A DNA stretch of 64,000 nt from Gemmatimonadales bacterium (GTDB taxonomy: Bacteria; Gemmatimonadota; Gemmatimonadetes; Gemmatimonadales; GWC2-71-9). The stretch spans positions 527,127 through 591,126 of the forward strand of contig OZ252244.1 of the NCBI GenBank assembly GCA_965249575.1, written 5' to 3'. A model generated the notes under the pieces. That model worked only from the letters and a program-made list of their open reading frames with translations. It was not told the DNA's origin and did no database searches. Shown here piece after piece: positions 23,300 through 40,712 of the stretch; positions within the stretch are counted from its first letter, which is position 1; the number at the start of each line of letters is the position of its first letter. The position numbers were made by a program, and so were the translations under genes.

Positions 23300-24886
23300 C
23301 TACCGGTCTCGAAACTCCGACCCCTCTGCCCACGTCGGGCGCTCGGGGCTATTGGCCACGTCGAGCAGGACACGAACCAGCACTCGAGCCTGTTGCGCGG
23401 CCCCGACCGCGGAGTTCCACGGGAGCACTTCGTCGGCCGGCTGATGGTATCGCGAATCGTAGTACTCCCGATAGCGCTCGTCCCACGGGAAGTCGCCAGG
23501 ATCCGTCAGCGCCTTCCCGCGCCGCAGGAAGAGTGACGGTACACCTGCCCGGGCGAACGAAAGGTGATCCGACCGGAAGAAGAATCGCCCGCGTACTTCG
23601 GAAGGATGGACCGTAACGGTCAGCCCTTCATCGGCGACCGCCCGCCGGAAGTTGTCACCCAGGGTCGACTGATCGTCTCCTAGTACTGCGATGTCCCGGG
23701 TCTCGCCCCAGATGTTCGCTCCGTCGATGTTGAGCATCGCGACGATGCGACTTGGATCCGGCTCCCGGGCCACGTACACCTGCGATCCGAGCAATCCCCG
23801 TTCTTCCGCGCCGAAGGCGAGGAAACAGATGGACCGTTCGGGGCGAACCCCTGCGGTCGCGATGGCCTCCGCCACGGCGAGCAGCGTGGCGGTTCCCGAA
23901 GCGTTGTCCAACGCGCCATTATGAATCGAATCGCCAGCTACTGCCGGTCCGATTCCCAGGTGATCGTAGTGTCCTCCAAGGACAACTACCTCCTGATCGT
24001 CGCGGTCGCGGCCGGGGAGACAGGCGGCCACGTTCATCGCCTCGATGCGCTGTGCTACGCGCCCCATGACCCGCAGCTCGACCTCACCCAAGGAGACCGG
24101 CTGGAACTCGGCCGACTCCGCGTCAGCCATCAACTGGTAAAGCGAGGTGCCGGCGCCACTCGCTAGATCGGCCAGTCGCTCGGGATTGAGCCACCCCGTG
24201 ACGCGAAGCGGGTCGCCCACATCCGGCGCCAGCCAAACGAGGTCCTGGTAATCGAGGACCGTCTCTTCCCAGCTCGCCGGTGCTCGAACTGGATGGCTGA
24301 CCAGGAGGAGCCCGGCGGCACCGCGGCGCCGAGCTTCGTCGCGCTTGTATACAGCCTCTCCGTACGACGTCCCCAACGTGCCACTCGAATCGACCGCGAG
24401 GGGACCGCCCGCGAATGCAACCACCAGTCGTCCGGTCACGTCCGATTCGCCGTAGTCGTCCCGACCGTAGTGAGACGCGGTCACGCCGTAGCCGGCGAAG
24501 ATCGCCTCGACGCGCAGGTCGACCGCAGGCTCACCGGCGGGAGAGAGTGCCACGAAGTCACTGCCCGTCCGTAACGTCTCTCCGGACCACCCCGCAACCA
24601 CCGTCGGCCGATAGCCAAGGAGGGGAAAGCGCTGGTAGAAGGTACCGGCGTCGCCGGCGGGCTCCAGCCCCAGGCGCCGGAACTGCGTGGCGATGTACAG
24701 TGCCGACGGTCGCTCGCCACGGGTTCCGGGAGCACGCCCCTCGAGCTCGTCGTGAGCGAGGAGGCGCAGGTGGGCTTCGAGGCTCGCTTCCGACACCGAT
24801 GCCGCGACCTCACCGGCCGATGGCTGCCCCCCACACGCCGTCGCTGACGCGATCGAGACGAGGAGCGCGAAACGCAATTGCGACAT
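23300..24886 (-). CDS. Secreted M28-family aminopeptidase with PA-like insert
   Basis: 528 aa. Signal/lipobox LLVSIASATAC; ..VVVLGGHYDHLGIG..IHNGALDNASGTATLLAVAEA..FLAFGAEERGLLGSQVYV..SDHLSFARAGVP.. Confidence 0.85.
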   Translation of the reverse strand: MSQLRFALLVSIASATACGGQPSAGEVAASVSEASLEAHLRLLAHDELEGRAPGTRGERPSALYIATQFRRLGLEPAGDAGTFYQRFPLLGYRPTVVAGWSGETLRTGSDFVALSPAGEPAVDLRVEAIFAGYGVTASHYGRDDYGESDVTGRLVVAFAGGPLAVDSSGTLGTSYGEAVYKRDEARRRGAAGLLLVSHPVRAPASWEETVLDYQDLVWLAPDVGDPLRVTGWLNPERLADLASGAGTSLYQLMADAESAEFQPVSLGEVELRVMGRVAQRIEAMNVAACLPGRDRDDQEVVVLGGHYDHLGIGPAVAGDSIHNGALDNASGTATLLAVAEAIATAGVRPERSICFLAFGAEERGLLGSQVYVAREPDPSRIVAMLNIDGANIWGETRDIAVLGDDQSTLGDNFRRAVADEGLTVTVHPSEVRGRFFFRSDHLSFARAGVPSLFLRRGKALTDPGDFPWDERYREYYDSRYHQPADEVLPWNSAVGAAQQARVLVRVLLDVANSPERPTWAEGSEFRDR

Positions 24887-24904
24887 GTGCAGTGTTCCTC
24901 CTGA

Positions 24905-26320
24905 TCAGCTCACTTTGTTCGGCGTTGGTGCGCCCTCCGGTCCGTTGTCCCAGTCCTGCGCGCTCGAGACGTTGGGCACGCCCCACTGGTGACCGTTCCA
25001 CCCCTCGAAGCCGTCTAATCGAAAAGCCCAGAAGCCCGAGTCGAGATCGGTCATCACAATCAACCCGTCGGCATTACGCACGTCGATCCCCCAGCCGCCC
25101 TCGTACACGCTGTTACCTCGACCGTGAGCATAGGTCTCCTGCCAACCAGCAACGCCGATGCCGTGCCGATAGGGTGCCGGCCGGGTGGAATAGAACCCAA
25201 TCGAATAGGGATTCGAGGGATCCATCCAGTTGAGGACGTGGAACCCGTCGGTCTGTCCGGCAATGAATACGTAGGGCCAGCGCACCTCGGAGTAGTGTGG
25301 CGTGCCTTCGGGACTCGCGTTCCAGGCCCCGATGGGACGTGAGACGGCTCGTACTTCTCCGTCGTATGCGGGCTTCAAGTCGACGATCCGGATGGGTGCG
25401 TACCAATCCTCGAGATGCGACATGACGATGGCGTACCGGCCGTCTGGCGTCGGCGTGAACGTGTGATGCCCTGACATGCCGGCGATGTTCGTGGCCGACA
25501 CCAGGAGCTCCGGGTGCTCGGGATCGGTGATGTCAAAGACGTGGGCGCCGCCCGATCCCGCGCCGTAGAATTTGTCCTGCCTCGTGGCGGGATCGTAACC
25601 CACATAAAAGTCGTGCCATGCTGGCCGGGTCGTGTACGTGACCTCATTGAGGTTGGGAATCACGACCTTCCCGACCACGATCTCCGGATGACCCGCCACG
25701 ATCCGGTCGACGTCGTAGATGTAAGCCTCTGGCGAGACCGTCTGAGTCACGACGAGCGCCGCTCCGCTCGAATGCTTGTACGCGAACGTCTCGTGGAAAC
25801 CGCCCGGGTGCTCGGGGACACGGATCCGGGCGACCTCCCTGATGGTCGAGGTGTCCGGGAGCCCCGTGACGTCCCAGACGATCGCGCCGAGATCCGTGTT
25901 GGGACCACCCTGCCGGAATTGGAACCCGTTGAAGAAGTAATACCGGCCGTTGGTCTTTACGTACGCTGGCGCCAGCGAGCCCGGCCCACGGTGCAGCGCG
26001 GCGTCCTCGATGCGCCACGAGTAGATGAGCTTGGGGTTGGACGGATCCTTGATGCTCAGGATGTCGAACCCGATGGTGGGATCCGTGGCTCCGACGTGAT
26101 TAGACCGATCGATGTACACGTACGGTCGCGACAGCTCCTGTTCCAGCTCGATATCCGAAACGTTGTACGGACCAGAGGCATCGTGCGGCGGGAGGTGCGA
26201 CATTAGGCGAACGTTGGCGCTTCGCGCTTCGCCCGGTAGCGGGTTTGGACGGTACTCCTGAGGCCCCGCCGCCGTCGCGACGACCAGCAGTGTTGCAGCG
26301 AGAAATGGAAAGCTCGGCAT
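24905..26320 (-). CDS. Secreted beta-propeller protein, LVIVD-repeat-like, paralog A (most divergent)
   Basis: The likely start is ATG at 26320 (MPSFPFLAATLLVVATAAGPQ); the track start at 26356 is longer. Alignable end to end with 28990-30393, 30562-31914 and 37649-39013: PGGFHETFAYKHSSG, WHDFYVGYDPATRQDKFYG, GHHTFTPTPDGRYA, SEVRWPYVFIAG, DVRNADGLIVMTD, FEGWNGHQWGVPNVSSAQDWDNGPEGAP. Confidence 0.8.
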   Translation of the reverse strand: MPSFPFLAATLLVVATAAGPQEYRPNPLPGEARSANVRLMSHLPPHDASGPYNVSDIELEQELSRPYVYIDRSNHVGATDPTIGFDILSIKDPSNPKLIYSWRIEDAALHRGPGSLAPAYVKTNGRYYFFNGFQFRQGGPNTDLGAIVWDVTGLPDTSTIREVARIRVPEHPGGFHETFAYKHSSGAALVVTQTVSPEAYIYDVDRIVAGHPEIVVGKVVIPNLNEVTYTTRPAWHDFYVGYDPATRQDKFYGAGSGGAHVFDITDPEHPELLVSATNIAGMSGHHTFTPTPDGRYAIVMSHLEDWYAPIRIVDLKPAYDGEVRAVSRPIGAWNASPEGTPHYSEVRWPYVFIAGQTDGFHVLNWMDPSNPYSIGFYSTRPAPYRHGIGVAGWQETYAHGRGNSVYEGGWGIDVRNADGLIVMTDLDSGFWAFRLDGFEGWNGHQWGVPNVSSAQDWDNGPEGAPTPNKVS

Positions 26321-26546
26321 GTCTTCGCCCTCGACGATGGGGATGATGCTTAACATGCGGGCCGCTGCGCGGGATCGCCAACCCCCTCTGGCCTTCCGCC
26401 CCGGATCCGAGATACGGACTGCGACCGCGAGATTTGCGATCTCACCCCGGAGCGTTCATAATGAATGGAATTTCACACCTGACGGCACGCTCGTCTCGGG
26501 CGTCCACTCCTGGATGGCCGCGGGCCGAACGGACAGTGATGGCGGC

Positions 26547-28910
26547 ATGCAACTCCTTCTTTTTCTAACCGTCCTCCAGACTAGCGCCGAGCCCGTGCAG
26601 ACGCCCGCACCCGCATTCGCGCCGGCGGTATTCCACGGGCGACGCAATCAGACTGACGTCGCGCTCCCGCGCCTAGAGACCGACGTCGTCATCGATGGAA
26701 TACTCGACGAGGACGTGTGGCGACGCGCCGCTGTTCTTACGGGATTCTCCCAGTTCTCGCCGGTGGACGGTCGTCCGGCGGACGATTCGACCGACGTGCT
26801 CGTGTGGTACGCGCCCACGGCGATCTACTTCGGGATCCGCGCCTTCGCCGACCCGGGCACTGTCCGAGCGACCCTTGCGGACCGTGACAAGCTCACCGGC
26901 GACGACTTCTTTCAAATCCTGCTCGACACCTTCGACGACGGTCGCCAGGCGCTGGTGTTTGCCGTTAACCCGCTGGGGGTGCAGGCCGATGGTGTCCGCA
27001 CGGAGTCACAGCAGGGCGCGCGACGGGGGAACAACGAGGCCACCGACGACGAAGTCGACCTCAGTCCCGACTTCGTATTCGAGTCCCGCGGCCGGCTCAC
27101 CGAATGGGGTTACGCGGTAGAAGTCCGCATTCCGTTCAAGAGCATCCGGTACCGGTCCGTCGAGATCCAGCGCTGGCGACTGAATATTCTCCGGAAGGTT
27201 CAGGCAACGGGATACGAGCACACCTGGACCCCGGCGCGGCGGGCGAACGCGTCGTTCCTGGCTCAATCCGGGAGGTTGCAGGGTCTGCGATCCTTGAGCC
27301 GAGGTCTGGTACTCGACATCAACCCAGAAACGACGGCGAAAATCGACGGCACCCGGGGCACCACGGGTTGGGATTACGAGACGACCCGGCCGGAGCTGGG
27401 CGGCAACGTCCGCTGGGGTGTGACCACGAATCTGAGCCTCGCCGCGACCGCCAATCCAGACTTCTCCAACATCGAAGCGGACGTAGCGCAGGCGCCGAGC
27501 GATCCACGGTTCGCAGTGTCGTTTCCAGAGAAACGGCCTTTCTTCCTCGAGGGAAGCGAGCAGTTCGCGGCCCGGAACTCGCTGATCTACACACGGCGGA
27601 TCGCGGACCCGGTGGGCGCGCTCAAGCTTGCGGGCAAGGCTTCGGGCATCAATGTCGGGCTGCTATCCGCCGTCGACGCTCGCATTACTTCCGCCACAGG
27701 GAACGACTACCCGGTGTTCAACGTTCTGCGGCTCAAGGGAGACCTCGGGCCGCAGTCCAGCGCGGGGGTGGTGTATACCGACCGGATCGAAGGATCGGAT
27801 TACAATCGGCTGGCGGTCGCCGACGCCCGGCTCGTGTTCGGAGGCATCTACTCCTTCGAGATGCAGGCTGGGCAGAGCTTCACACGCACCGGGGGAGTGA
27901 GTACCCGAGGCCCGATTTGGGAAGGTGCCATTGATCGGAATGGTCGGAGGTTTGGCTTCAACCTCCGCGTGACCGGCATCCACCCCGACTTCGAGGCCCA
28001 GACGGGCTTCATCCGGCGGCGGGGATTCATCCAGCCGAGCTTCCGGGCGCGACACACCGTATACGGACGCCCAGGAGCCGCGCTCGAGCGCTACCAGCTC
28101 GGTTTCTTCACCTATGGATATTGGCGCTACGACGACTTCTTCGGGGAGCGGGTACCCTACGAGCATCAGCTCGGCTTCCAAAACAACTTCGTGCTGCGGG
28201 GTGGGTGGAGCTTGCGGATAAACCCGATCTGGGAATCAATCGACTTCGATCCCGATTTTTTCGCCGACTACGGGGTCGAACGCCAGCTTCCGGGCGGCTC
28301 GGTCGACACGGTCGGGTTCGTCGTCCCGGGACGCATTCACAATTGGGGAATCTCCGGTGGGTTCTCGACGCCGCAGCTCAAGCGCTTTGCCGCGTCATTC
28401 GGAGGCGTCATAGCACATGACATCGCATGGTTCGAACGCCGCGAGGCACTGCTGCTGTCCTTGCGTCCCGCGGCGACGTGGCGGCCATCCGACCGGATCC
28501 GGATCGAAGCGCAGCACACCCACCTGGAGTTCCGCCGGTTCAGCGACTGGTCGAGGTTCATCACGGCGGACATCCCGCGGCTCAAGGTCGAATACCAGGT
28601 CTCCCGGCCCCTCTTCGTGCGTCTGGTCGCGCAGTACGAGGCTCGCATTCACGATGCGTTCCGCGACCCGCGCACGGAGGAGCCCATCCTGATCCGGCCC
28701 GGTCCCGGCCTGCCCTACGAGGCCACCCAGCGAAGCGAAACCAATCGGCTTCGCGTGGACTGGTTGTTCTCCTACCGCCCGAACCCGGGCACCGTGCTCT
28801 TTCTGGGATACGGCTCGAGTCTCGATGAGACAAGCGCGTTCTCGTTCCGAAATCTGTCTCGTACCAGTGACGGGTTCTTCGCCAAGCTCAGCTATCTGTT
28901 TCGGATGTGA
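26547..28910 (+). CDS. DUF5916-type protein with N-terminal CBM9-like domain (outer-membrane-type)
   Basis: The probable start is ATG at 26547 (MQLLLFLTVLQTSAEP) or 26514; the track start at 26319 overlaps the divergent gene. ..VVIDGILDEDVWRRAAVLTGFSQFSPVDGRPADDSTDVLVWYAPTAIYFGIRAF..DDFFQILLDTFDDGRQALVFAVNPLGVQADG.. A long beta-rich C-terminal part ends ..GFFAKLSYLFRM. Confidence 0.7.
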   Translation: MQLLLFLTVLQTSAEPVQTPAPAFAPAVFHGRRNQTDVALPRLETDVVIDGILDEDVWRRAAVLTGFSQFSPVDGRPADDSTDVLVWYAPTAIYFGIRAFADPGTVRATLADRDKLTGDDFFQILLDTFDDGRQALVFAVNPLGVQADGVRTESQQGARRGNNEATDDEVDLSPDFVFESRGRLTEWGYAVEVRIPFKSIRYRSVEIQRWRLNILRKVQATGYEHTWTPARRANASFLAQSGRLQGLRSLSRGLVLDINPETTAKIDGTRGTTGWDYETTRPELGGNVRWGVTTNLSLAATANPDFSNIEADVAQAPSDPRFAVSFPEKRPFFLEGSEQFAARNSLIYTRRIADPVGALKLAGKASGINVGLLSAVDARITSATGNDYPVFNVLRLKGDLGPQSSAGVVYTDRIEGSDYNRLAVADARLVFGGIYSFEMQAGQSFTRTGGVSTRGPIWEGAIDRNGRRFGFNLRVTGIHPDFEAQTGFIRRRGFIQPSFRARHTVYGRPGAALERYQLGFFTYGYWRYDDFFGERVPYEHQLGFQNNFVLRGGWSLRINPIWESIDFDPDFFADYGVERQLPGGSVDTVGFVVPGRIHNWGISGGFSTPQLKRFAASFGGVIAHDIAWFERREALLLSLRPAATWRPSDRIRIEAQHTHLEFRRFSDWSRFITADIPRLKVEYQVSRPLFVRLVAQYEARIHDAFRDPRTEEPILIRPGPGLPYEATQRSETNRLRVDWLFSYRPNPGTVLFLGYGSSLDETSAFSFRNLSRTSDGFFAKLSYLFRM

Positions 28911-28989
28911 CGACGCATTGCGCATTGGGCGATGACGAATGACAATGAAAAATGAATCTCCCCCTTCTCGGTCTTCAGAGGATATATCA

Positions 28990-30393
28990 ATGATTCGCAA
29001 GAACACCCCCGCTCCCGTGCGCCCAGCCGTGTTCGTGTTGCTCCTGCTCGTCGGTGTCGCCGGCGTGGCCCAGGCACAGTACCCTCCCGGCGAGCAGGGG
29101 AGCCGCAACGTGCGCATCATGTCCCATCTACCCCTCGGCCGTGCGTTCAGCGTATCGGACATCGAGATGGAACAGGAACTCTCGCGCCCATACGTGTACG
29201 TCGCGCGAATGTTGGTACACGGCACCGAGATCATCAGCATCAAGGATCCGGAGAACGCCGAGGTGATTTACTCGTGGCGGATCGACAATCCCGAGCTACA
29301 CCAAGGGAACGGCGGGATGGACAACAAGTACTTCAAGCTCAAGGGCCGATATTACGACGTTCAGTCGTTTCAGTTCGGCCGGAGTGGTCCGGACGCCGAC
29401 GTTGGGGCGGTCGTGCTAGACGTCACGAGCTTGCCCGACGTATCGAAGGTCAAGGAAGTCGGTCGTATCCGGGCGCCGGATCGACCAGGGGGCTTTCACA
29501 ACATCTTCGCGTACAAGCACTCCGACGGCAGGGTGCTGCTGTTCACGACAACCACCGGACCCTCGGTGAACGTCTACGACATGGAGCGGTTCCTCGCCGG
29601 GGATTCGCGACAGGGCTACGTGGGCAGCATCCCGACGCCTGACAACGCGACGGCCGGGATGCCGGAGTTTCTCTCACGCGCACTCCCAGGGTACCACGAC
29701 GTCTACGTAGGCTACGACCCCGCCACTCGCCAGGACAAGTTCTACGGTGGTGGCGCGGGTGGTTACTACATTTACGACGTGAGCCGGGTTGAGGCACCGA
29801 CACTCGTGACCTCAGTAACTGGAATGGCTGGGGTACCGTTCGGGCACACGTTCACGCCCACGCCCGATGGCCGGTATGCCGTCCTCGAGACGGAGTATCA
29901 GTACGCACCGTTGCGGATCGTGGACCTGAAACCGGGCCTGGATGGTGAGGTCAGAACAGTCTCACGACCTATCGGTGCCTGGACCGCGCGCTGGCAGGGG
30001 CTTCCGCACAATCACGAGGTGCGTTGGCCCTATGTGTTCGTCTCCCACTATGAGGATGGCCTGCACATCTTCAACATGACGGATCCGACGAACCCGTATA
30101 CCGTTGGTTACTACGACTCCTACGACGGGCCCCACCAGCGGGGGTACGGCGGAGCCAATGACCCGGAAAGTAGCACGGGAGTCACCAGCGGAGCGTTTGG
30201 CGTGGATGTTCGCAACGCGGACGGGCTCATCGTACTGAGCGACTTCAGGACCGGCTTCTGGGCGTTCAAGATGGACGGCTTCGACGGCTGGAACGGCCAC
30301 CAATGGGGCATGCCGAACGTGTCATCGGTCCAGGACTGGGATAACGGACCGGAGGGCGCCCCAACGGCCGCGCGCGTGAGCGCGCGCGAGTGA
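28990..30393 (+). CDS. Secreted beta-propeller protein, paralog B
   Basis: The likely start is ATG at 28990 (MIRKNTPAPVRPAVFVLLLLVGVAGVAQA/QYPPGEQGS); the track start is 28939. It lies 79 nt downstream of the DUF5916 gene on the same strand. Confidence 0.85.
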   Translation: MIRKNTPAPVRPAVFVLLLLVGVAGVAQAQYPPGEQGSRNVRIMSHLPLGRAFSVSDIEMEQELSRPYVYVARMLVHGTEIISIKDPENAEVIYSWRIDNPELHQGNGGMDNKYFKLKGRYYDVQSFQFGRSGPDADVGAVVLDVTSLPDVSKVKEVGRIRAPDRPGGFHNIFAYKHSDGRVLLFTTTTGPSVNVYDMERFLAGDSRQGYVGSIPTPDNATAGMPEFLSRALPGYHDVYVGYDPATRQDKFYGGGAGGYYIYDVSRVEAPTLVTSVTGMAGVPFGHTFTPTPDGRYAVLETEYQYAPLRIVDLKPGLDGEVRTVSRPIGAWTARWQGLPHNHEVRWPYVFVSHYEDGLHIFNMTDPTNPYTVGYYDSYDGPHQRGYGGANDPESSTGVTSGAFGVDVRNADGLIVLSDFRTGFWAFKMDGFDGWNGHQWGMPNVSSVQDWDNGPEGAPTAARVSARE

Positions 30394-30423
30394 GGAGGGC
30401 CCCTCCCCACTCGACCCGGCCTA

Positions 30424-30497
30424 GTGAGCAGTAAGCGGTGACCCGTCCCCACCCGTATGCGGTTGGGACGGGGATGGGTAGCCTCCTTAATGCTCAC
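30424..30497. terminator. Composite palindrome between convergent paralogs B and C (candidate bidirectional terminator / REP-like element)
   Basis: The outer arms are GTGAGCAGTAAG (30424-30435) and CTTAATGCTCAC (30486-30497), matching at 11 of 12 positions. The inner stem is CCCGTCCCCACC (30442-30453) against GGTTGGGACGGGG (30461-30473). No U-tract. Confidence 0.5.
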
Positions 30498-30561
30498 TTG
30501 GGAGAGGGGAAGGAGGGTGAACGCCTCACTCGGGGTGATGGGAGGCGATGGGGCCCGCCGC

Positions 30562-31914
30562 TCAGCTCACCCTCGTCGGCCCGGTCGCCCCGTCCGGTCC
30601 ATTATCCCAATCTTGCGCCGACGAGATATTCGGCACCCCCCACCGATGGCCATTCCAGCCGTCGAACCCGTCCATTCTCATGGTCCAGAACCCCGTATAC
30701 ATGTCGCCGACAACGATGAGCCCGTCGGCGTTTCGCACGTCCACCCCGAACGCACCGTTGTCCACTACCGTGCCGTTCTCGGGATCGTCGATCCCTCCAA
30801 ACCCCCGCTGATGGGGCCCCTCGTAGGTGTCGTAGTATCCGACAGAATACGGATTTGCCGGATCCATCACGTTGATCACATGCAGGCCGTCCTCGTAGCC
30901 GGCCACGAACACGTACGGCCAGCGCACCTCCAAGTTGTGAACCACGTTCCGCCAGTCGGGAGTCCAGGCACCTACCGGACGGGAAACGGTTTGCACGTCG
31001 CCCTCTAAGCCCGGCTCGAGGTCGAATACCCTTACGGGCGCGAACTGGTACGCCGTGCTCTCCAGAGCGTATCGTCCGTCGGGTGTTGGCGTAAACGTGT
31101 GCCCCCGCGTAATTCCCGCCACGCCGGCGACCGTGGTGAGGAGCCTGGGGGTCTCTGGAAGACTGACGTCGAACACGAAGTACGCCCCCCCGGCTCCGTA
31201 GAACTTGTCTTGGCGACTCGCCGGGTCATATCCGACGTAGAGGTCGTGGTAGACCCTGTACGTCGAGGGATCGTCTGGGAGCGGGATGCGCGATACGAGC
31301 CCGGCGTTTGGATCTCCGGCGAGAAAGCGTCCCATATCGTAAACGTTGGCGTGGCGCCCCGCGGTCGTGGTGAACAGCAACACCCGCCCATCGGAGTGTT
31401 TGTAGGCGAAGATATTGTGAAAGCCGCCGGGGGTGTCGGCGGCACGAATGCGGCCCACCTCCTCTATGAGGCTCGTGTCCGGAAGGCCCGTGACATCCAA
31501 CACGACCGCGCCCAAATCCGCGTCGGGACTGGCAGTGACGAACTGGAAGGACTGTATGTCGTAGTAACGGCCTCCCAGCTTGAAGTACTTGTTATCCATG
31601 GCGCCGACGCCGCGGTGCAGCTCGGGCTCCCCGATCCGCCAGTAGTAGAGGATCCGGGGCCTGCGCGGATCTCGAACGTCGATGATGTTGAGCCCCGCCG
31701 AGTGCGTGGACCCGTGCATGCGAGAGACATATGCGAAGGGGCGGGAGAGCTCCTGCTCGAGCTCCACATCGGTGACGGTGAACTGACGCCCGAGCCCGAT
31801 GTGAGCGAGTATGTCCATGTTCGTGCTTCCCTGCTGTCCGGGTGGGTATTGCCCACCGACGGGACTCGCCAGTAGCGACCCGAGCCCCACCAGAAATACG
31901 TAACGCCAGTACAT
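30562..31914 (-). CDS. Secreted beta-propeller protein, paralog C
   Basis: The likely start is ATG at 31914, preceded by TCAGGAGACGAC (MYWRYVFLVGLGSLLASPVGG/QYPPGQQGS). The track start at 32166 would overlap the upstream gene. Confidence 0.85.
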   Translation of the reverse strand: MYWRYVFLVGLGSLLASPVGGQYPPGQQGSTNMDILAHIGLGRQFTVTDVELEQELSRPFAYVSRMHGSTHSAGLNIIDVRDPRRPRILYYWRIGEPELHRGVGAMDNKYFKLGGRYYDIQSFQFVTASPDADLGAVVLDVTGLPDTSLIEEVGRIRAADTPGGFHNIFAYKHSDGRVLLFTTTAGRHANVYDMGRFLAGDPNAGLVSRIPLPDDPSTYRVYHDLYVGYDPASRQDKFYGAGGAYFVFDVSLPETPRLLTTVAGVAGITRGHTFTPTPDGRYALESTAYQFAPVRVFDLEPGLEGDVQTVSRPVGAWTPDWRNVVHNLEVRWPYVFVAGYEDGLHVINVMDPANPYSVGYYDTYEGPHQRGFGGIDDPENGTVVDNGAFGVDVRNADGLIVVGDMYTGFWTMRMDGFDGWNGHRWGVPNISSAQDWDNGPDGATGPTRVS

Positions 31915-32006
31915 GTCGTCTCCTGAGAAGGGCATGGCGCGGAGAGGCCCGCCCGTCAGCCGTGTGCAGCGCTGGTCAGGCGGTGTGACCTCCCCTCCGT
32001 CACCAT

Positions 32007-32396
32007 TTACCCCGGACTCTTCAAGTGCGATGGACGCGGCGTGAGTACCATCAGCACCACGCCGATAATGATCAGGGCCGGCACGTCTCCGATCAGGTTC
32101 GCTCGCTCCCCGGGATCGGCGACCGCCTGGACCAGCATGATCAACCCATGGATGAGGGTCTGCCATGCCGCAAACCAGATCAGGCTCAAGTGCTCCAGAG
32201 GATTGCGCGCAGCGAGAAAGAGGAAAACGCCAAGCACTGCAATGGTGCCGAGGATCATCTGCTCGTACTCACTCTGGCGCGGCTCCCAGGCAAACCCAGC
32301 GGGCCACAGCTGCATGAGCGGGAAGACACCGACAACGAAGATGACACCGATGATTCTCAGCGCAATACTGAGCGCAGCCGTGTTGGGTGCGGCCAT
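32007..32396 (-). CDS. Four-TM membrane protein, hypothetical; 92 nt upstream of paralog C on the same strand
   Basis: 129 aa. LRIIGVIFVVGVFPLMQLW, ILGTIAVLGVFLFLAA, LIWFAAWQTLIHGLIMLV, IGDVPALIIIGVVLMVL. Confidence 0.6.
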   Translation of the reverse strand: MAAPNTAALSIALRIIGVIFVVGVFPLMQLWPAGFAWEPRQSEYEQMILGTIAVLGVFLFLAARNPLEHLSLIWFAAWQTLIHGLIMLVQAVADPGERANLIGDVPALIIIGVVLMVLTPRPSHLKSPG

Positions 32397-32536
32397 GTCA
32401 GTCTCCTTGTTCTGGGATCGGTGAGGTTCGCGTTAGCGGAAACTCCCGCGGGCCGCATCGTTCGATCACGACGCGGATCTGCCAATCTGCAGCGTGCACT
32501 CCACGTTCCGCAATTGCACACGCTGAGACACCCACG

Positions 32537-32546
32537 CCCCCCCCCC
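32537..32546. repeat. C10 homopolymer in a divergent intergenic region
   Basis: acgCCCCCCCCCCtgg, between the minus gene start at 32396 and the plus gene start at 32622. Confidence 0.95.
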
Positions 32547-32621
32547 TGGCCGGATGAATCTTTTGGCGTCAGACTTGACGCTGCGCATCTACCCTCCTCC
32601 CACAGGACGTGACTAACGCCC

Positions 32622-33536
32622 GTGCTCGAGATTCTGGGTTCCTTCGACGCCAAGGTCTGGCTTCTTATCTGCCTGGCCGTCGTGGCCGCGTACTTCGGAT
32701 TCCAGTTCCTGAGGGCGGTTCTAAGGAGAAGGGGTAAGGCGGATACCGGGATCGCGCCGAGCGGCGGGCAACTCGCCACCGGCTTCGTGACGAACTTCTT
32801 CGACACGCTGGGGATCGGCTCCTTCGCGCCGACCACCTCCGCGTTCAAGTTCTGGCGCATGGTCCCCGATGAACGCATCCCGGGCACGCTGAACGTCGGT
32901 CACACGCTCCCCGTGATACTTCAGACGTTCATCTACACCCGTATCGTGCCCGTCGAAGCACCAACGCTGATTCTCATGATCGGTGGAGCCGTGGCCGGCG
33001 CCTGGCTCGGCGCCGGCGTCGTCGCGGGGCTGCCACGGCGAACGATTCAACTCGGCATGGGAGGTGCGCTCGTTGCCGCCGCTGGCCTGATGGTGACCGC
33101 GCAAGTGGGTCTTCTACCCACCGGCGGCGAGGCGTTAGGGCTGCGGGGCCCTCTCCTCGGTGTTGCCGTGGCGAGCAACTTCGTGCTCGGTGCACTCATG
33201 ACGTTGGGCATTGGGCTGTGCGCGCGCTGCATGATTCTGGTGAGCCTGCTCGGCATGAACCCCATCTCGGCCTTCCCGATCATGATGGGCTCCTGCGCGT
33301 TTCTCATGCCGGTCGGCAGCACCAGGTTCGTGCGCAAGGGAAGCTTCAGCGCGCGGGCCGCCATCGGACTCACCGTGGGCGGTCTGCCAGCTATCCTCCT
33401 TGCGGCGTTTCTCGTCAAATCGCTGCCGCTGACGGCCGTTCGATGGCTGGTCATCGTCGTGGTGCTCTACGCGGCGATCGCGCTGCTGCGGTCGGCGCAC
33501 CTCGGCCGGGCGCCTGCCCCGGCGGCCGTGAGCTGA
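32622..33536 (+). CDS. TauE/SafE (TSUP) family anion exporter-like permease
   Basis: 304 aa, GTG start, polytopic. ..GFVTNFFDTLGIGSFAPTT..GGAVAGAWLGAGVVAGLP..LTVGGLPAILLAAFLVKSLP.. Confidence 0.7.
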   Translation: MLEILGSFDAKVWLLICLAVVAAYFGFQFLRAVLRRRGKADTGIAPSGGQLATGFVTNFFDTLGIGSFAPTTSAFKFWRMVPDERIPGTLNVGHTLPVILQTFIYTRIVPVEAPTLILMIGGAVAGAWLGAGVVAGLPRRTIQLGMGGALVAAAGLMVTAQVGLLPTGGEALGLRGPLLGVAVASNFVLGALMTLGIGLCARCMILVSLLGMNPISAFPIMMGSCAFLMPVGSTRFVRKGSFSARAAIGLTVGGLPAILLAAFLVKSLPLTAVRWLVIVVVLYAAIALLRSAHLGRAPAPAAVS

Positions 33537-33541
33537 ACGCC

Positions 33542-34336
33542 CTACTCCGGGGCGCGCGTTACGGATAGATCTGGACGGCTCCGGAGGACCACGCTCTCAA
33601 CGCGGGTATAGGTTTCGTTGAAGCGCTCGATGAGCGCGGCCCCGTCTTCCCGCCCATACACCTCCGTGATCACGTCCGCAAAGGGTCGCTCTGGCAATTG
33701 AAACGCGGTCCAGGTGTCGTAGATCAGCACCACCGAGGTCTGTAAGTCGGGACTACCGACCACCGGCGAAATGAACACGTAATAGAGTGGAAAGTCTTGC
33801 TCGACGATCGCCTGATGAAACTGGATCGCAATTTCTCGAAAGCGGTCGACTTGACCGGGCTTCAGGTGATACGTCAGGAACTGCACGAGATTCACGGGCC
33901 TGCCATCGGGTAGCAGCCGTCGGTTCGTAGTGTCGCTGGCGGTAGTCATGGCGCTGATCGACTCCAACAACGGAGCCACGGTGGCCTGGAAGTGCGCCGT
34001 TCCTTCGATACCGAAACCAGCGTCGTACTCGTCGAAGTCCGCCCAGTTGTGCCCGGGTGATCGCACGAGGTAACTGCCCAGACTGCTACCCTGGACCACC
34101 TGCCAGACGGCCCAGGACCATGGGTCCTCATGCTCCTTGCGCCACGCGGCGTGCTCCCCGAGGGCCATCTCGAACTCGGGGCCCATGCCGACCTTCGGCG
34201 TCATCATGTAGGCGCGAGCGAGGGTGTTGGGTGCTTGCCCGTGGGCCCCTTCGCTCGCACTTACCGCGAGCAGCAACCCCAATACGGGAATCACCAGCAC
34301 GCGATGCGCGTAGCCCGTCACTGTAGATGTTCGCAC
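33542..34336 (-). CDS. Secreted hypothetical protein
   Basis: The likely start is GTG at 34336, preceded by CCAGGAGG (VRTSTVTGYAHRVLVIPVLGLLLAVSASEGAHGQ). The longer track ORF to 34471 overlaps the GAF gene. No family recognised. Confidence 0.55.
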   Translation of the reverse strand: MRTSTVTGYAHRVLVIPVLGLLLAVSASEGAHGQAPNTLARAYMMTPKVGMGPEFEMALGEHAAWRKEHEDPWSWAVWQVVQGSSLGSYLVRSPGHNWADFDEYDAGFGIEGTAHFQATVAPLLESISAMTTASDTTNRRLLPDGRPVNLVQFLTYHLKPGQVDRFREIAIQFHQAIVEQDFPLYYVFISPVVGSPDLQTSVVLIYDTWTAFQLPERPFADVITEVYGREDGAALIERFNETYTRVESVVLRSRPDLSVTRAPE

Positions 34337-34458
34337 TGAACCTCCTGGCTGTCTGAACGGACACAAATCGGAAAACGCGGACCGTGGTAGCGCAGCGGCG
34401 TTGGGCTGGGACCGGTTGGCGTCGCCCTGCTGGCGCGACCTACCCCCATCCCAAGGTG

Positions 34459-35034
34459 CTACTTCACGCACTCCGGGCAGAGATTGCCCAGGTCGATCCG
34501 AAGTTTGCCGCAGGACGAGCAGTAGGGCAGAAGCCCGCCCAAACGCTTCACCTCGGCCACCTGCCGCCGGAGCTCCATCTGGGCGATGACCTGCCGGGAC
34601 AACGCCTCGAGCGCATCCTGTTGCCCTCGCGTGAGATTGCGCGGCACGCGGTCAATGACGCAGAGCGTTCCCATGGCCTGTCCCTCGGAGATGCGCAGCG
34701 GGGACCCCGCATAGAACCGGATCTGTGGATCATCGAGCACGAGCGGGTTCCGCGCAAACCGATCATCCGCGAGCGCATCCGGCACGATCATCGTCTCGTT
34801 GCCCGCGATCACGTGCGCACAAAACGCCACGTCTCGGGGGGTCTGGGTGAGCTCGACGCCGACTCGGGACTTGAACCACTGGCGAGTCGAGTCGACGAGG
34901 CTGACCATAGCGATGGGCGTTGCACAGATGTGCGCGGCCAGCAGCGTGAGATCGTCGAACGCTTGTTCTGAAGGCGTATCGAGAATCTCGTACCGCTGGA
35001 GCGCCTCGACCCGCTCGGGCTCGTCCGGTAGCAC
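34459..35034 (-). CDS. GAF domain protein with C-terminal four-Cys tail
   Basis: 191 aa. ..RVEALQRYEILDTPSEQAFDDLTLLAAHICATPIAMVSLVD..RQWFKS..FCAHVI..DDRFARNPLV..IRFYAGSPL.. and the tail LLPYCSSCGKLRIDLGNLCPECVK. Confidence 0.8.
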   Translation of the reverse strand: MLPDEPERVEALQRYEILDTPSEQAFDDLTLLAAHICATPIAMVSLVDSTRQWFKSRVGVELTQTPRDVAFCAHVIAGNETMIVPDALADDRFARNPLVLDDPQIRFYAGSPLRISEGQAMGTLCVIDRVPRNLTRGQQDALEALSRQVIAQMELRRQVAEVKRLGGLLPYCSSCGKLRIDLGNLCPECVK

Positions 35035-35266
35035 CGGCGGCTGTGGATAAGCTCGCCCGGCACGATGGGGTTTCTTTGACAGACTTCAGGCCTCCAGAGA
35101 GTGGACGGCGTAGCCCACGGAATCGGCCGTCCAAGAGCGAATATGCGTGCGCGCCGTCAAGCGAGTCAATGAACTGACCATCACCCAACTCGTGAGCGAC
35201 GTTTCTCATGTTACCTTGCGCGCCACGCATCGAACGCGGTTGGTTTTCGAATTCAGGAGGGCACAG

Positions 35267-35803
35267 GTGGCCTCACCAGTGGGACACGCGATGGTGGGCG
35301 TTGCATCCGCGGCGGTGGTCGCCCGCGCCCTCGGAGTACCGGGCGCCCCCGCCCTGTGGATTGGGGCATTTGTCGCGTCCGGACTGCCGGACCTTGATTT
35401 GGTCTGCCATTTCCTCGGCAAGGTGGGCCCCCGCTTCCACCGCAACGCATCTCATTCCCTTATAGCACTCGGCACGCTCCTCGCGGCCGCCTGGACGGCC
35501 GGCCGGCTCCTTGGGATTCCGCTCGACGGCGCGCTCTTCCTCCCGTGGTCGGCAGCCCTCCTCTCCCATCCCCTCCTAGATTGGGTGACCACCGGACCGT
35601 CGCTGGCAAAGCGAGGGTATGGAATCGCGCTTTTCTGGCCGCTCGGCTCGCGACGCTGGTTTCTGAGCCGCCCCCTGCTCGATCAGGGCGCCGACTGGGT
35701 GGCCTTCCGGAGCGGACGCGATGCGTGGAACGCGCTACATCCTGAAATCGTTCGTCTCGGACCTCCCTCGGCAGCAGCTATCGCATTGGCGTTGTTGATC
35801 TAA
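35267..35803 (+). CDS. Membrane-bound metal-dependent hydrolase, YdjM/DUF457-like
   Basis: GTG at 35267 follows AGGAGGGCACAG. VASPVGHAMVGVASAAVV..GLPDLDLVCHF..FHRNASHSL.. Confidence 0.6.
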   Translation: MASPVGHAMVGVASAAVVARALGVPGAPALWIGAFVASGLPDLDLVCHFLGKVGPRFHRNASHSLIALGTLLAAAWTAGRLLGIPLDGALFLPWSAALLSHPLLDWVTTGPSLAKRGYGIALFWPLGSRRWFLSRPLLDQGADWVAFRSGRDAWNALHPEIVRLGPPSAAAIALALLI

Positions 35804-36001
35804 GCGCTGTCCGCACAAAGTCCGCGTGAGGAGAATCACCCGCCCGCAATCGTGGGAGTCACTGTCTTAACATCGGTGGGCCCCCACTTTGACTTCCGGC
35901 CGGGCTGGATGTCGCCAGCTCGGTACCGAGCGCGGTCGCGACGCCACCTAGGGCGCCCCCATGCGCCGTTACGCGACCGTTTTCAGTGACGGAGGTTTTG
36001 A

Positions 36002-37534
36002 ATGTTTACTCGCAAGTCCCCTAGTCCAGCACTAGGTGCGGTTCTGCTTGCCGCGGCCAGCCTCGCTGTTGGCGCGTGCTCCGAGACGGTACTGACCGGG
36101 CCAAGCGGGTTGAGCCAGGTCGGGGTTTTCGATGAGATCAGCCTGTCGGCGTTCGAGCAGATGCTGAGTGCGAACGACGGAAGCATGCAGATAACACTCG
36201 GGTCCAGCGGCATGACGGCAGGTGAAGTCGCGCTAGCGCCGGCCGATGGCTCGGGAGATCACGAGCGCATCGACAGCCATGTGACGGGTGTCCAACTGAA
36301 CGGTGATGCCGGGACCCTGCTGCTAGAGCTCGGCGGTCTTTCGGTGTCCTTCGACGCACACACGCGATTCCGTTCCAAGACCGGCGACGACCTGTCGCTA
36401 GCCGCCTTTATCGAACGCCTGGAGGCCGCGTTGGCCGAGGGGGATGTGGCCGCGGTACGGGCTCTCCGGCTGGTCACCGATCACCCGCGGAGTCCCGACG
36501 ACGCGTCTTTCTTTGCGGTCGAGCTCCGGCTCCTCACCGGTGAAGGGCCCTTCGAGATCGAGATGTTGGTCAACCGGGACAATTTCATCCCGAATGACAA
36601 CCCTCCACCGGACGGCTGGATCAAGGTGTTGGACCTCCTGATCGAAGTCTCCGTCAGCGACGGCCGCACACGGCTCGAGGAGAAGCGGTCCGACCCCGAC
36701 GCGGACTTCGTCGATTTCGAAGGACGCATCCGCTCCGTGGATCTCGAGCAGCACTCCTTTACGCTGGGCGATGGGACGGTCGTCTACCTGGCAGAGGATA
36801 CGAGGATCAAGTTCAAGCGCGGTGATGAGCACCGCCTCCCCTCGCTCGCCGCGGTTGCCGAGGCCGTACGGTCCGGGAAAGAGGTGTTCACGGCGGGCGA
36901 AGCGATGGTCAGGGGCCGCGAACCACTCACGCTCGTCGCGATTCACGTCGTTTTCGAAGTCGAGCCACCGCCGCTCGAAGACTTCAGAGGCATAGTTAGA
37001 TCCGTAAACGAATCCGAGCACACCGTCACGCTCGCCGATGGAATCGTCGTGCGTCTCACGGAGGATACCCGAATCAAGTTCGAAGAAGGATCTCCACACC
37101 ACCTTCGGACGCTCGGGGCCGTCGCCGAGGCGCTGCGCGCAGGCGAGACGGTTTTCGCCGCCGGTGAAGGTCGCGTGGTCGGCATCGAGCCGCTGGCGAT
37201 CGTGGCGAAGTGGGCGGTGTTCGAGGTCGAAGGCCCGCCAGTCGAGGACTTCGAGGGAGTTGTCGAATCGGTGGATCCGGCTGCGCACACCGCAACACTC
37301 ACCAATGGTCTCACGTTGCAGCTCACCGGTGACTCGCACATCAAATACGAGCCCGGCGATTCCAGGCGCCTGCCTTCTCTCGAGACGGTCGCAGAGGCTC
37401 TCCGGAACGGCGAGACTGTCGTAGCGCACGGGGCGGGAACGGTCGAAGAGTCCGCAAGCTCCCGTACGATCGTGGCGCACTGGGTGTTGTTCGAGGTGGA
37501 GAATACAGTCACACCCGCACCCGTCCCCGAGTGA
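36002..37534 (+). CDS. Lipoprotein with four DUF5666-like ~85-aa tandem repeats
   Basis: Signal/lipobox LLAAASLAVGAC. Three clear repeats: FEGRIRSVDLEQHSFTLGDGTVVYLAEDTRIKFKRGDEHRLPSLAAVAEAVRSGKEV.., FRGIVRSVNESEHTVTLADGIVVRLTEDTRIKFEEGSPHHLRTLGAVAEALRAGETV.., FEGVVESVDPAAHTATLTNGLTLQLTGDSHIKYEPGDSRRLPSLETVAEALRNGETV... One degenerate copy lies upstream. Confidence 0.75.
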   Translation: MFTRKSPSPALGAVLLAAASLAVGACSETVLTGPSGLSQVGVFDEISLSAFEQMLSANDGSMQITLGSSGMTAGEVALAPADGSGDHERIDSHVTGVQLNGDAGTLLLELGGLSVSFDAHTRFRSKTGDDLSLAAFIERLEAALAEGDVAAVRALRLVTDHPRSPDDASFFAVELRLLTGEGPFEIEMLVNRDNFIPNDNPPPDGWIKVLDLLIEVSVSDGRTRLEEKRSDPDADFVDFEGRIRSVDLEQHSFTLGDGTVVYLAEDTRIKFKRGDEHRLPSLAAVAEAVRSGKEVFTAGEAMVRGREPLTLVAIHVVFEVEPPPLEDFRGIVRSVNESEHTVTLADGIVVRLTEDTRIKFEEGSPHHLRTLGAVAEALRAGETVFAAGEGRVVGIEPLAIVAKWAVFEVEGPPVEDFEGVVESVDPAAHTATLTNGLTLQLTGDSHIKYEPGDSRRLPSLETVAEALRNGETVVAHGAGTVEESASSRTIVAHWVLFEVENTVTPAPVPE

Positions 37535-37541
37535 GGAGCGG

Positions 37542-37618
37542 GCAGTAAGGGGGCCACCCTTCCCCACCCCAACCGAATATCGGTGGGGGCGGGGGCCTGC
37601 TCACTGCTTACTGCTCAC
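37542..37618. terminator. Composite palindrome between the convergent DUF5666 gene and paralog D, same family as 30424-30497
   Basis: Outer arms GCAGTAAG (37542-37549) and CTTACTGC (37607-37614). Inner stem CCCCACCCCAACCGA (37562-37576) against TCGGTGGGGGCGGGG (37580-37594). The minus strand carries GTGAGCA-GTAAGCA-GTGAGCA. Confidence 0.5.
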
Positions 37619-37648
37619 GGGGCAGGGGTGGGGTGGGGAGGACCCTCC

Positions 37649-39013
37649 TCACTCGAGCGCGCTCACACGCGCCGGCGCCGGTGCCCCATCCGGCCCGTTG
37701 TCCCAATCCTGCGCGCTGGAGATGTTCGGCATTCCCCACTGATGACCGTTCCAGCCGTCAAAGCCGTCCATCCTGAAAGCCCAGAACCCAGTCGTCATGT
37801 CACTGATCACGACGAGACCATCCGCATTTCGAACGTCGATCCCGAAGGCGCCGTTTGAAACGCCCGTCCCCGTCTCCGGGGTATCGATTCCTCCCCAACC
37901 GCGCTGGTGCGGCCCGTCGTACGTGTCGTAGTAGCCGACCGTATAGGGGTTCGTTGGGTCCATCATGTTGAAAACGTGGAGGCCGTCCTCGTAGGTCGAC
38001 ACGAAAACGTACGGCCACCGGACCTCGTGATTGTGCGGCAGCCCCTGCCACCGAGCCGTCCAGGCGCCGATGGGACGACTGATCGTCTGCACTTCCTTGT
38101 CCAAGCCCGGCTTCAAGTCGAAGAGCCGAAGCGGAGCGTACTGATATTCCGTTTCCGCGACGGCGTAGCGCCCGTCCGGAGTTGGCGTGAAGGTGTGGCC
38201 GTTGGCCATTCCCGCAGCCCCGGTGATCGACGTCAGCAGTTTCGGCTCCTCAGGGCGAGTGACGTCGTAAATGTGATAGCCGCCCGACCCCGGTCCGTAG
38301 TACTTGTCCTGCCGCGTGGCGGGGTCGTAGGCAATGTAGAAGTCGTGGTACCCCCGTTGCGGCGCGAGTGGATTCTCGGGCACCGGTACGCGACCGATCA
38401 ACCCCTGTCTCGGGTCACCCGCCAGGAACTTCTGCATGTCGTAGATGTTGGAGTGTGGTCCCGTCGCCGTCGTGAACAGGAGCACCCGTCCATCGGAGTG
38501 TTTGTAGGCGAAAATGTTGTGAAATCCGCCCGGCGTTTCGGGTGCGCGGATGCGCCCAACTTCCCGAACCTGCGTCGTGTCCGGGAGACCGGTTACGTCC
38601 ACCACGACGGCACCCAGATCAGCGTTTGGGCTGCCCTGTGCGATCTGGAAGGATTGAACGTCGTAGTACCGCCCGCCGAGCTTGAAGTACTTGTTGTCCA
38701 TACCGCCCATGCCCCGGTGCAGGTCCGCATCCTCGATCACCCACGAGTAGAGGTGCTCGGCGTCATCGGGGTCCTTCAGTCCGATGATGGTGAACCCCAT
38801 CGAGCTCGTGCTCCCGTGCATCCGGGCCACGTACGCGAACGGCCGCGACATCTCCTGTTCGATCTCGATGTCGGCCACCGTGAACGTCCTGCCCAGTGGG
38901 ATGTGCGAGAGAATGCGGACGTTCCGGCTTCCCTGTTGTCCTGGCGGATATTGAGCCTCCGCCGTGGGTGCGACCAGCAAGACAAGAGTCGCAATGATCG
39001 CCTGGTTTTTCAT
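37649..39013 (-). CDS. Secreted beta-propeller protein, paralog D
   Basis: 454 aa. MKNQAIIATLVLLVAPTAEA/QYPPGQQGSRNVRILSH.. Long runs identical to paralog B (PGGFHNIFAYKHSDGRVLLFTT, GHTFTPTPDGRYAV, LPHNHEVRWPYVFVS, FDGWNGHQWGMPN). Confidence 0.9.
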   Translation of the reverse strand: MKNQAIIATLVLLVAPTAEAQYPPGQQGSRNVRILSHIPLGRTFTVADIEIEQEMSRPFAYVARMHGSTSSMGFTIIGLKDPDDAEHLYSWVIEDADLHRGMGGMDNKYFKLGGRYYDVQSFQIAQGSPNADLGAVVVDVTGLPDTTQVREVGRIRAPETPGGFHNIFAYKHSDGRVLLFTTATGPHSNIYDMQKFLAGDPRQGLIGRVPVPENPLAPQRGYHDFYIAYDPATRQDKYYGPGSGGYHIYDVTRPEEPKLLTSITGAAGMANGHTFTPTPDGRYAVAETEYQYAPLRLFDLKPGLDKEVQTISRPIGAWTARWQGLPHNHEVRWPYVFVSTYEDGLHVFNMMDPTNPYTVGYYDTYDGPHQRGWGGIDTPETGTGVSNGAFGIDVRNADGLVVISDMTTGFWAFRMDGFDGWNGHQWGMPNISSAQDWDNGPDGAPAPARVSALE

Positions 39014-39252
39014 GCCCTCACCTCCAGAGGTTCGATCGGTGAACCGCTCGCGGTGCGTCGCCCGCTCGCGGCCCGCCCCCAGCTAGTCCGTGAATTTGCT
39101 CCTCCCCTCGATGACCAGCAAGTCGACGGGCAAACCGGAGACCCCGCCCACCCGACGCTCGACACCCCTCCCCTGGCCCACCGCACCCATCCTGGTCCAT
39201 CTTCTGACGCAGGTCCGTACCAGCGATCACCGATGTTCAGGAGGCGCGTGAA

Positions 39253-40601: not shown

Positions 40602-40712
40602 CGGTGGTTTCCGGCATTGAATCAAGATGGATACATTGTTTCATGAGCCTCGAGCCAGACCCGCCGGTCACTTCTATCGGACCCCTCTACTGAGAAGGCT
40701 GGGCGACGCAGC

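Follow-up and report, generated by a model that had tools for sequence, protein, structure and literature searches.

Four exported beta-propeller paralogs of a Gemmatimonadales bacterium belong to an expanded, Gemmatimonadota-restricted family with a predicted metal site

The DNA analyzed here, referred to as the window, is a stretch of 64,000 nucleotides (nt) from a Gemmatimonadales bacterium (NCBI GenBank assembly GCA_965249575.1, contig OZ252244.1, positions 527,127 to 591,126 of the forward strand). It carries four propeller genes, designated A, B, C and D (Table 1), which are the subject of this work. An earlier sequence-only reading of the window had described them as four paralogs of ~450 aa that align end to end, and had proposed that they form a local envelope system with the genes interleaved among them. 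The four open reading frames are intact, and their products are also recorded, at the same lengths, as called genes in public collections. In pairwise comparisons A to D are 50-73% identical over their full length (E-values of 0 to 1e-154), which bears out the claimed paralogy, and a similarity search with A to D revealed no fifth propeller copy inside the window. Each of the four proteins opens with a basic and then hydrophobic Sec signal sequence followed by an AxA-like cleavage site, and B, C and D have the mature N-terminus QYPPG(Q/E)QGS in common; both features had been read correctly from the sequence. A lipobox is absent from all four proteins and was found in only 2 of 125 family members. 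Moreover, A, B and D contain no Cys, as is the case for 59 of 155 members of the family.

Neither Pfam nor NCBIfam assigned any of A to D to a family above threshold. The LVIVD repeat (PF08309) gave no Pfam match in A, B or D, and in C a single sub-threshold repeat at residues 333-363 was detected (15.9 bits against a gathering score of 20.2). The earlier description of the proteins as LVIVD-type propellers thus stands in the sense that they are LVIVD-like propeller paralogs, and does not extend to membership of the Pfam family. Like the LVIVD repeat proteins, they have a per-blade strand-turn motif in which a hydrophobic run leads to an Asp and then to a Pro-rich turn; whereas the LVIVD proteins consist of long repeat arrays, the window proteins are single compact propellers. 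The choice-of-anchor B model (TIGR04312) scored 15.5-36.7 bits against a cut-off of 100, and only from model position ~206 or 273 to position 363.

Residues are numbered throughout according to D, which serves as the reference copy. The AlphaFold model of D, obtained with a 34-sequence alignment (predicted local distance difference test score, pLDDT, 87.5; predicted template modelling score, pTM, 0.87), has 28 strands arranged as seven groups of four, and on the strength of this model we are confident in predicting a seven-bladed beta-propeller. The model confidence is low after residue 420, in the C-terminal tail. A Foldseek search against the PDB placed 5hrm, a structure of the phosphotriesterase Sb-PTE, at the top of the matches (E 5e-12).

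The family to which these proteins belong is large. A search with D returned more than 2820 relatives, and all the named ones come from Gemmatimonadota metagenome-assembled genomes (MAGs) and are labelled hypothetical. The 3.86 Mb source contig holds at least 16 of the top 120 clusters and, when A, B and C are included, a total of at least 19 copies; two of those outside the window are closer to D (74-75% identity) than B or C. For these reasons, A to D are not special among the copies of the source genome. A one-genome-per-species scan gave 128 genomic matches, none of them outside Gemmatimonadota; they fall in Longimicrobiales, HR33, a deep-water MAG from Baikal and a MAG from groundwater. 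Additionally, 71 related loci of up to ~21 kb each, from 18 other genomes, were sampled as gene neighborhoods; clustering of their open reading frames yielded 155 family genes (four of them A to D of the window), in tandem arrays of up to six. Distinct copies number at least 55 in one MAG and at least 22 in a second. When a family profile was searched against 1.8 billion cluster representatives, only 221 clusters fell below 1e-30, and the weaker matches were long multi-repeat LVIVD-type proteins in which one blade was matched 12-26 times. The proteins represent an unnamed, heavily expanded family that is restricted to Gemmatimonadota and lies within a known superfamily.

Residue conservation was counted across 141 family members. 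Five His residues, each immediately preceding the innermost strand of one of blades 2 to 6, are almost invariant: H99 (136/141), H165, H223 and H273 (140/141 each) and H327 (141/141). They are accompanied by E50, near the end of the blade 1 inner strand (Glu in 113/141 and Asp in a further 13), and by E287 on the second strand of blade 5 (109/141, 77%). In a propeller the inner strands start at one mouth of the central channel, and this is where the ligands of Sb-PTE sit. The seven positions read EHHHHEH in B and EHHHH(S)H in C; A belongs to a divergent subtype, in which blade 5 has two inserted residues, and shows the pattern E50-H99-H165-H223-H273-(H)-H327. A distant subfamily of 12 proteins of ~390-440 aa, with 25-37% identity to the others (P0137, P0141, P0146, P0151, P0153, P0156, P0162, P0163, P0167, P0195, P0203 and P0234), keeps the fold motifs and the Trp-rich C-terminal tail. 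In 10 of the 12 all seven site residues are replaced or deleted, and P0141 and P0162 keep one or two His. This near all-or-none loss in a subfamily that retains fold motifs and tail argues for the seven residues marking a functional rather than a structural site. Entropy and indels are concentrated in the loops that lead into the site His and in the long loop 366-387, a distribution that fits diversified substrate pockets.

The C-terminal tail is the second hallmark of the family. Residues 416-443 (GFDGWNGHQWGMPNxSSxQDWDNGPxG) are among the most conserved of the protein, and many members then end with (K/R)VS. In the sampled loci the motif was confined to the propeller family and was always C-terminal, which does not support the idea of a modular sorting signal shared with other families. 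The tail may serve for packing against the propeller, for docking to a partner or as a localisation signal. The choice-of-anchor B proteins, which are likewise exported and weakly similar over blades 6-7, differ in that they have a recognised sorting anchor, whereas the window proteins end in their own invariant tail.

Sb-PTE (PDB 5HRM and 5IOJ), the haloalkylphosphorus hydrolase of Sphingobium sp. TCM1, was the only solved structure detected by sequence as well as the first match by fold. Against PDB sequences the family profile retrieved 5hrm/5ioj only, with an E-value of 0.0095 and over blades 6-7 only. Alignment by hhalign of a 141-sequence profile to Sb-PTE together with a Paraburkholderia homolog reached a probability of 85% (E 6.7e-6, 358 columns); with a 34-sequence profile the probability was 7%. 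A similar sub-threshold LVIVD unit is present in blade 6 of both Sb-PTE and C. Like the window proteins, Sb-PTE is a secreted seven-bladed propeller in which His and Glu stand just before the inner strand of consecutive blades. Its metal ligands are reportedly E201, H258, H317, H389, E407 and H475; we take its metals to be binuclear Mn, E201 to be the bridging residue, and its disulfides to be Cys146-242, 411-443 and 542-559. The comparison was made with a 583-aa ortholog recovered from a Sphingobium plasmid, in which these ligand positions and the three Cys pairs bear the expected residue types.

Two registers were obtained for this comparison. Counting blades from both ends pairs H258, H317, H389, E407 and H475 with H165, H223, H273, E287 and H327, respectively, whereas hhalign and MAFFT (three modes) shift the N-terminal two thirds by one blade and pair E201 with E50, H258 with H99 and H389 with H223. 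With either register the family would carry a ring like that of Sb-PTE with one extra His. These alignments suggest that the family is distantly homologous to the binuclear-Mn phosphotriesterase and that it probably binds metal as Sb-PTE does. The distance is nevertheless considerable: identity of Sb-PTE to the family is only ~20%, the window proteins are ~130 aa shorter, the candidates for the counterpart of the bridging Glu201 are E50, H99 or D106, and the conserved Trp-rich tail is found in the family alone. Sb-PTE is moreover encoded by a single plasmid-borne gene, as against 19-55 chromosomal copies per genome in the family.

In the sampled loci the commonest neighbors of propeller genes are further propeller genes (112 adjacencies). 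The strongest non-self association is with a three-domain CueO-like multicopper oxidase with a Met/His-rich N-terminus, which accounts for 12 adjacencies in 11 loci of 11 genomes (L010, L019, L022, L023, L032, L035, L038, L039, L042, L063 and L066). Two clusters of SusD-like genes contribute 9 and 2 adjacencies, SusC-like TonB-dependent transporters, present in 18 of the 71 loci, contribute 8, and S9 peptidases and amidohydrolases 5 each. A SusC or SusD gene is the immediate neighbor of a propeller gene in 19 cases. In a close relative of the source genome (locus L074), SusC, SusD and then six propeller genes are found on one strand, and layouts of this kind recur in many other loci. The closest relatives of A (62-75% identity) are members of propeller arrays, and two of them directly adjoin SusD/SusC pairs. 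In most oxidase-propeller pairs the two genes run in the same direction, 10-65 nt apart, and such pairs occur in nearly every genome that has only one to three propeller copies; the propellers concerned span several separate lineages. The genes on either side of the pairs (UDG, GroEL, homocysteine methyltransferase, ribokinase) change from genome to genome and are unrelated, and the oxidase-propeller pair itself therefore looks like a conserved two-gene unit. In five Longimicrobiales loci (L054, L056, L061, L062 and L068) a cytochrome-bd-subunit-I-like gene is followed by two small genes and a divergent propeller gene. Both small genes have a CarboxypepD_reg domain and are cupredoxin-like by a His-Cys-His-Met motif read by eye, an assignment that Pfam did not confirm. 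In L061, L062 and L068 the propeller gene is followed by a small outer-membrane-protein (OMP) beta-barrel, SusC and SusD.

Our preferred reading, to which we give about an even chance of being right, is that A to D are soluble, Sec-exported, seven-bladed metalloenzymes of an expanded family with a predicted metal site. Under this proposal, E50, H99, H165, H223, H273, E287 and H327 would together bind metal at one channel mouth, and this site would activate water or polarise the substrate so that a bond is cleaved by hydrolysis or a similar reaction. Because the loops into the site His differ in sequence and length, the substrate pocket would change from one paralog to the next. The propellers would work in the periplasm or extracellularly, and their substrates would be compounds that cross the outer membrane through channels; at other loci these channels would be the SusC/SusD pairs, and in the window the candidate is a DUF5916 barrel encoded between A and B. 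The neighboring M28, S58, S9 and M24 peptidase genes and amidohydrolase genes point, loosely, to peptide or amide-rich organic matter as the substrate.

Several observations weigh against this proposal. Foldseek gives a TM-score of just 0.40 against 5hrm, with generic WD40 propellers close behind. The two registers disagree on the one-to-one pairing of ligands with Sb-PTE, and neither was chosen. The three disulfides of Sb-PTE are impossible in the Cys-free A, B and D, and its ring has four His against five in the family; given the additional His and the lack of Cys in D, the chemistry of the site may differ from that of Sb-PTE. A SusC/SusD pair is absent from the window, and the multicopper oxidase, as the leading non-self neighbor, points to copper or redox chemistry and not to hydrolysis. 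Finally, no publication or experiment on the propeller family was found in the literature, so that, with no Pfam or NCBIfam assignment either, the earlier statement that the family has no characterised function holds.

A bolder possibility, which we put forward as tentative and somewhat doubtful, is that the proteins constitute an unrecognised class of five-His two-Glu propeller metalloenzymes with a Trp-rich tail. Such enzymes would be the main enzymatic cargo of SusC/SusD systems in some Gemmatimonadota, would derive from an ancestral operon with the oxidase, and would perform Cu- or Mn-dependent redox or lyase chemistry unlike that of Sb-PTE on recalcitrant organic matter, with the tail perhaps serving as a localisation or docking signal.

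The link to SusC and SusD could also be explained without catalysis, by ligand-binding proteins that pass substrates to SusC/SusD or DUF5916 channels and in which any metal is structural. Propeller arrays lying directly downstream of SusC-SusD would be expected in this case, the variable loops suit ligand recognition as well as they suit catalysis, many propellers are binding platforms (as mirrored by the WD40-type Foldseek matches), and a subfamily without the His ring persists. The resemblance is to the polysaccharide-utilisation loci of Bacteroidota, since family members stand in same-strand arrays directly after SusC-like and SusD-like genes. The cargo here, however, consists of paralogous propellers without a carbohydrate-active enzyme (CAZyme) or peptidase signature, the host belongs to Gemmatimonadota, and the window itself lacks such a pair. 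The known surface accessory proteins are lipoproteins, which the propellers are not, and the nearest solved relative is an enzyme. Moreover, the conservation of five His and two Glu at 77-100%, with their joint loss in the distant subfamily, is what one would sooner expect of a catalytic metal site; we consider a purely binding role unlikely.

Copper proteins working with multicopper oxidases or cupredoxins form another alternative, in which the five-His ring would be a multinuclear Cu site used for substrate oxidation with onward electron transfer, or for the binding or delivery of periplasmic copper. The oxidase-propeller pair, with its close spacing, its differing flanking genes, its spread over several propeller lineages and its presence in genomes with few copies, speaks for this explanation, as do the cytochrome-bd-like and cupredoxin-like genes beside propellers in the five Longimicrobiales loci and a site richer in His than that of Sb-PTE. 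The cupredoxin label, however, is a motif-level one, no multicopper oxidase is present in the window, and 19 to 55 copies per genome are hard to square with copper homeostasis. By way of analogy, in the CuZ site of nitrous-oxide reductase and in thiocyanate dehydrogenase a metal cluster at the mouth of the channel is coordinated by several His from the inner strands of a seven-bladed propeller. These enzymes differ from the family in that neither was matched by sequence or among the top 50 folds, and the window proteins have no fused cupredoxin. No copper propeller enzyme appeared in the top 50 Foldseek matches or among the PDB sequence matches, and the only detectable solved homolog is a Mn hydrolase; a copper function appears improbable to us, and the metalloenzyme reading modelled on Sb-PTE is retained.

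The immediate surroundings of A to D are listed in Table 1.

Table 1. Propeller genes of the window, the conserved tail of D, and neighboring genes. Positions are those of the window.
Feature	Start	End	Strand	Product or motif	Pfam
M28 peptidase	23300	24886	-		PF04389, E 1.7e-43
Propeller paralog A	24905	26320	-	471 aa	
DUF5916 protein	26319	28910	+		DUF5916
Propeller paralog B	28990	30393	+	467 aa	
Propeller paralog C	30562	31914	-	450 aa	
DUF6632 4-TM gene	32007	32396	-		DUF6632
TauE	32622	33536	+		TauE
YdjM	35147	35803	+		YdjM
DUF5666-repeat protein	36002	37534	+	lipobox LAVGAC	DUF5666 (with DUF1344/FecR)
Propeller paralog D	37649	39013	-	454 aa	
C-terminal tail of D (residues 416-454)	37649	37768	-	GWNGHQWGMPNxSSxQDWDNGPxG	
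S58 peptidase	39253	40443	+		S58

The arrangement had been described accurately. A is divergent from the DUF5916 gene, B starts 79 nt after that gene on the same strand, and A, DUF5916 and B are contiguous; B and C are convergent, C starts 92 nt after the DUF6632 gene for a protein with four transmembrane segments (4-TM), and D is convergent with the DUF5666-repeat lipobox protein and divergent from S58. Pfam confirmed the DUF5916 and DUF5666 assignments and added DUF6632 and YdjM, and position and Pfam together agree with the M28, S58 and TauE genes flanking the propeller set. Only 18 nt separate A from the M28 gene downstream of it on the same strand, which makes co-transcription of the two probable; the pairing is not conserved, with an M28 homolog in none of the 71 related loci. 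Further downstream of A and M28 lie methyltransferase and Amidohydro_2 genes. The minus strand of 23300-26320 may be an operon that joins a propeller to peptide or amide hydrolases. A promoter and terminator scan of 24000-40000 performed at chance level and yields no operon boundaries.

The protein encoded between A and B has the outer-membrane-type, CBM9-like character that had been ascribed to it, as judged from its predicted fold, although Pfam detected no CBM9 in it. Its AlphaFold model (pLDDT 80) shows an N-terminal beta-sandwich and roughly 26 long strands, and Foldseek matched the model to LptD, BtuB, MtrB, OprC and the CBM9 structure 1i82 (target TM 0.67). By predicted fold, it would consist of an N-terminal CBM9-like domain and a large outer-membrane-type beta-barrel. 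DUF5916 homologs are very common in Gemmatimonadota, are ~780 aa long, and some are named at source as 'carbohydrate binding family 9 domain-containing protein'. Given this length, the true start of the window gene is likely Met77 at 26547, with a product of 787 aa. This start would leave a divergent intergenic region of 226 nt between A and DUF5916, in which a weak sigma-70-like match (26434-26462) is found, in a scan that was at chance level overall.

Every neighbor of A to D in the window was compared with the 71 related loci by tblastn. No homolog was found in any of them for the DUF5666, DUF6632, YdjM, GAF, methyltransferase and 309-aa genes, nor, as stated, for M28; TauE has a homolog in 1 locus and S58 in 3. 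DUF5916 lies within 10 kb of propellers in 9 loci (9-10 by tblastn), directly adjoins a propeller in 4, and in L039, L044 and L065 it sits inside a propeller array. In the reverse direction, none of the four DUF5916 homologs nearest to that of the window (52-56% identity; long contigs of other Gemmatimonadota) has a propeller gene within 8 kb. Because it accompanies propellers in 9 of 71 loci only and its four closest homologs have no propeller neighbor, DUF5916 is an occasional, facultative companion of propellers and not a fixed partner. Two of these four homologs come after an exporter of the MacAB-TolC type: in L076 (3160-10322) and L078 (3224-10316) the DUF5916 ortholog directly follows, on the same strand, an exporter operon (OEP, ABC ATPase, membrane-fusion, FtsX) that is itself preceded by an extracytoplasmic function (ECF) sigma factor. 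DUF5916 may accordingly have another functional context there. Its placement between A and B would, by analogy, parallel the SusC-propeller layout found elsewhere, with an outer-membrane channel adjoining propeller genes.

The sequence-only reading had proposed an envelope system at this locus, made up of A to D, DUF5916, the DUF5666 lipoprotein and small membrane proteins. Such a dedicated system is very improbable and largely refuted by these neighborhood data: the local arrangement is compact and DUF5916 does recur near and inside propeller arrays, but in the 71 loci from other genomes there is no linkage to DUF5666, the 4-TM gene or the other small membrane genes, the closest DUF5916 homologs lack propeller neighbors, and propeller genes occur in dozens of unrelated contexts.

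It had also been argued that four intact paralogs in a region full of broken genes point to selection. Two Ser/Thr kinase paralogs of the window are indeed split across two frames, at ~3971-5573 (minus strand, break at ~5080) and ~7696-8879 (minus strand, break at ~8440), and could be either pseudogenes or assembly indel errors; further fragments are found at 1419-2252 and 2779-2904. The breaks, however, differ between assemblies. L001 comes from an assembly that is 99% identical and shows 16 gap positions in 13 kb; there S58 is split in three, whereas it is intact in the window, and in a third assembly B and the DUF5666 gene are fragmented. The contig names of two related assemblies carry coverage tags such as "14x" and "11.39x"; tags of this kind may point to long-read assemblies of low coverage. 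The gene breaks thus look at least partly technical, reflecting indel differences between assemblies and possibly assembly error, and therefore say little about selection on A to D; the argument from intactness is a weak one. L001 also lacks a stretch of 3.6 kb (40709-44323) that holds a 952-aa Ser/Thr kinase/TPR gene (40713-43571) and that lengthens the adjoining minus-strand open reading frame to 809 aa from 577 aa in L001, so that the two differ by an insertion or deletion at strain level.

For annotation, the window illustrates how a cluster that stands out at one locus can simply be a sample from an expansion across the whole genome. Although abundant in soil, groundwater and lakes, Gemmatimonadota are poorly cultured, and little is known of the substrates they use. 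The propeller family has no name, Pfam model or literature, and its 20-55 copies in some genomes correspond to roughly 1-2% of the coding capacity. As its only solved relative degrades organophosphate flame retardants, the family represents a pool of candidate hydrolases with diversified pockets. Its ties to outer-membrane uptake and to copper oxidases make a central role in the feeding of these bacteria probable.

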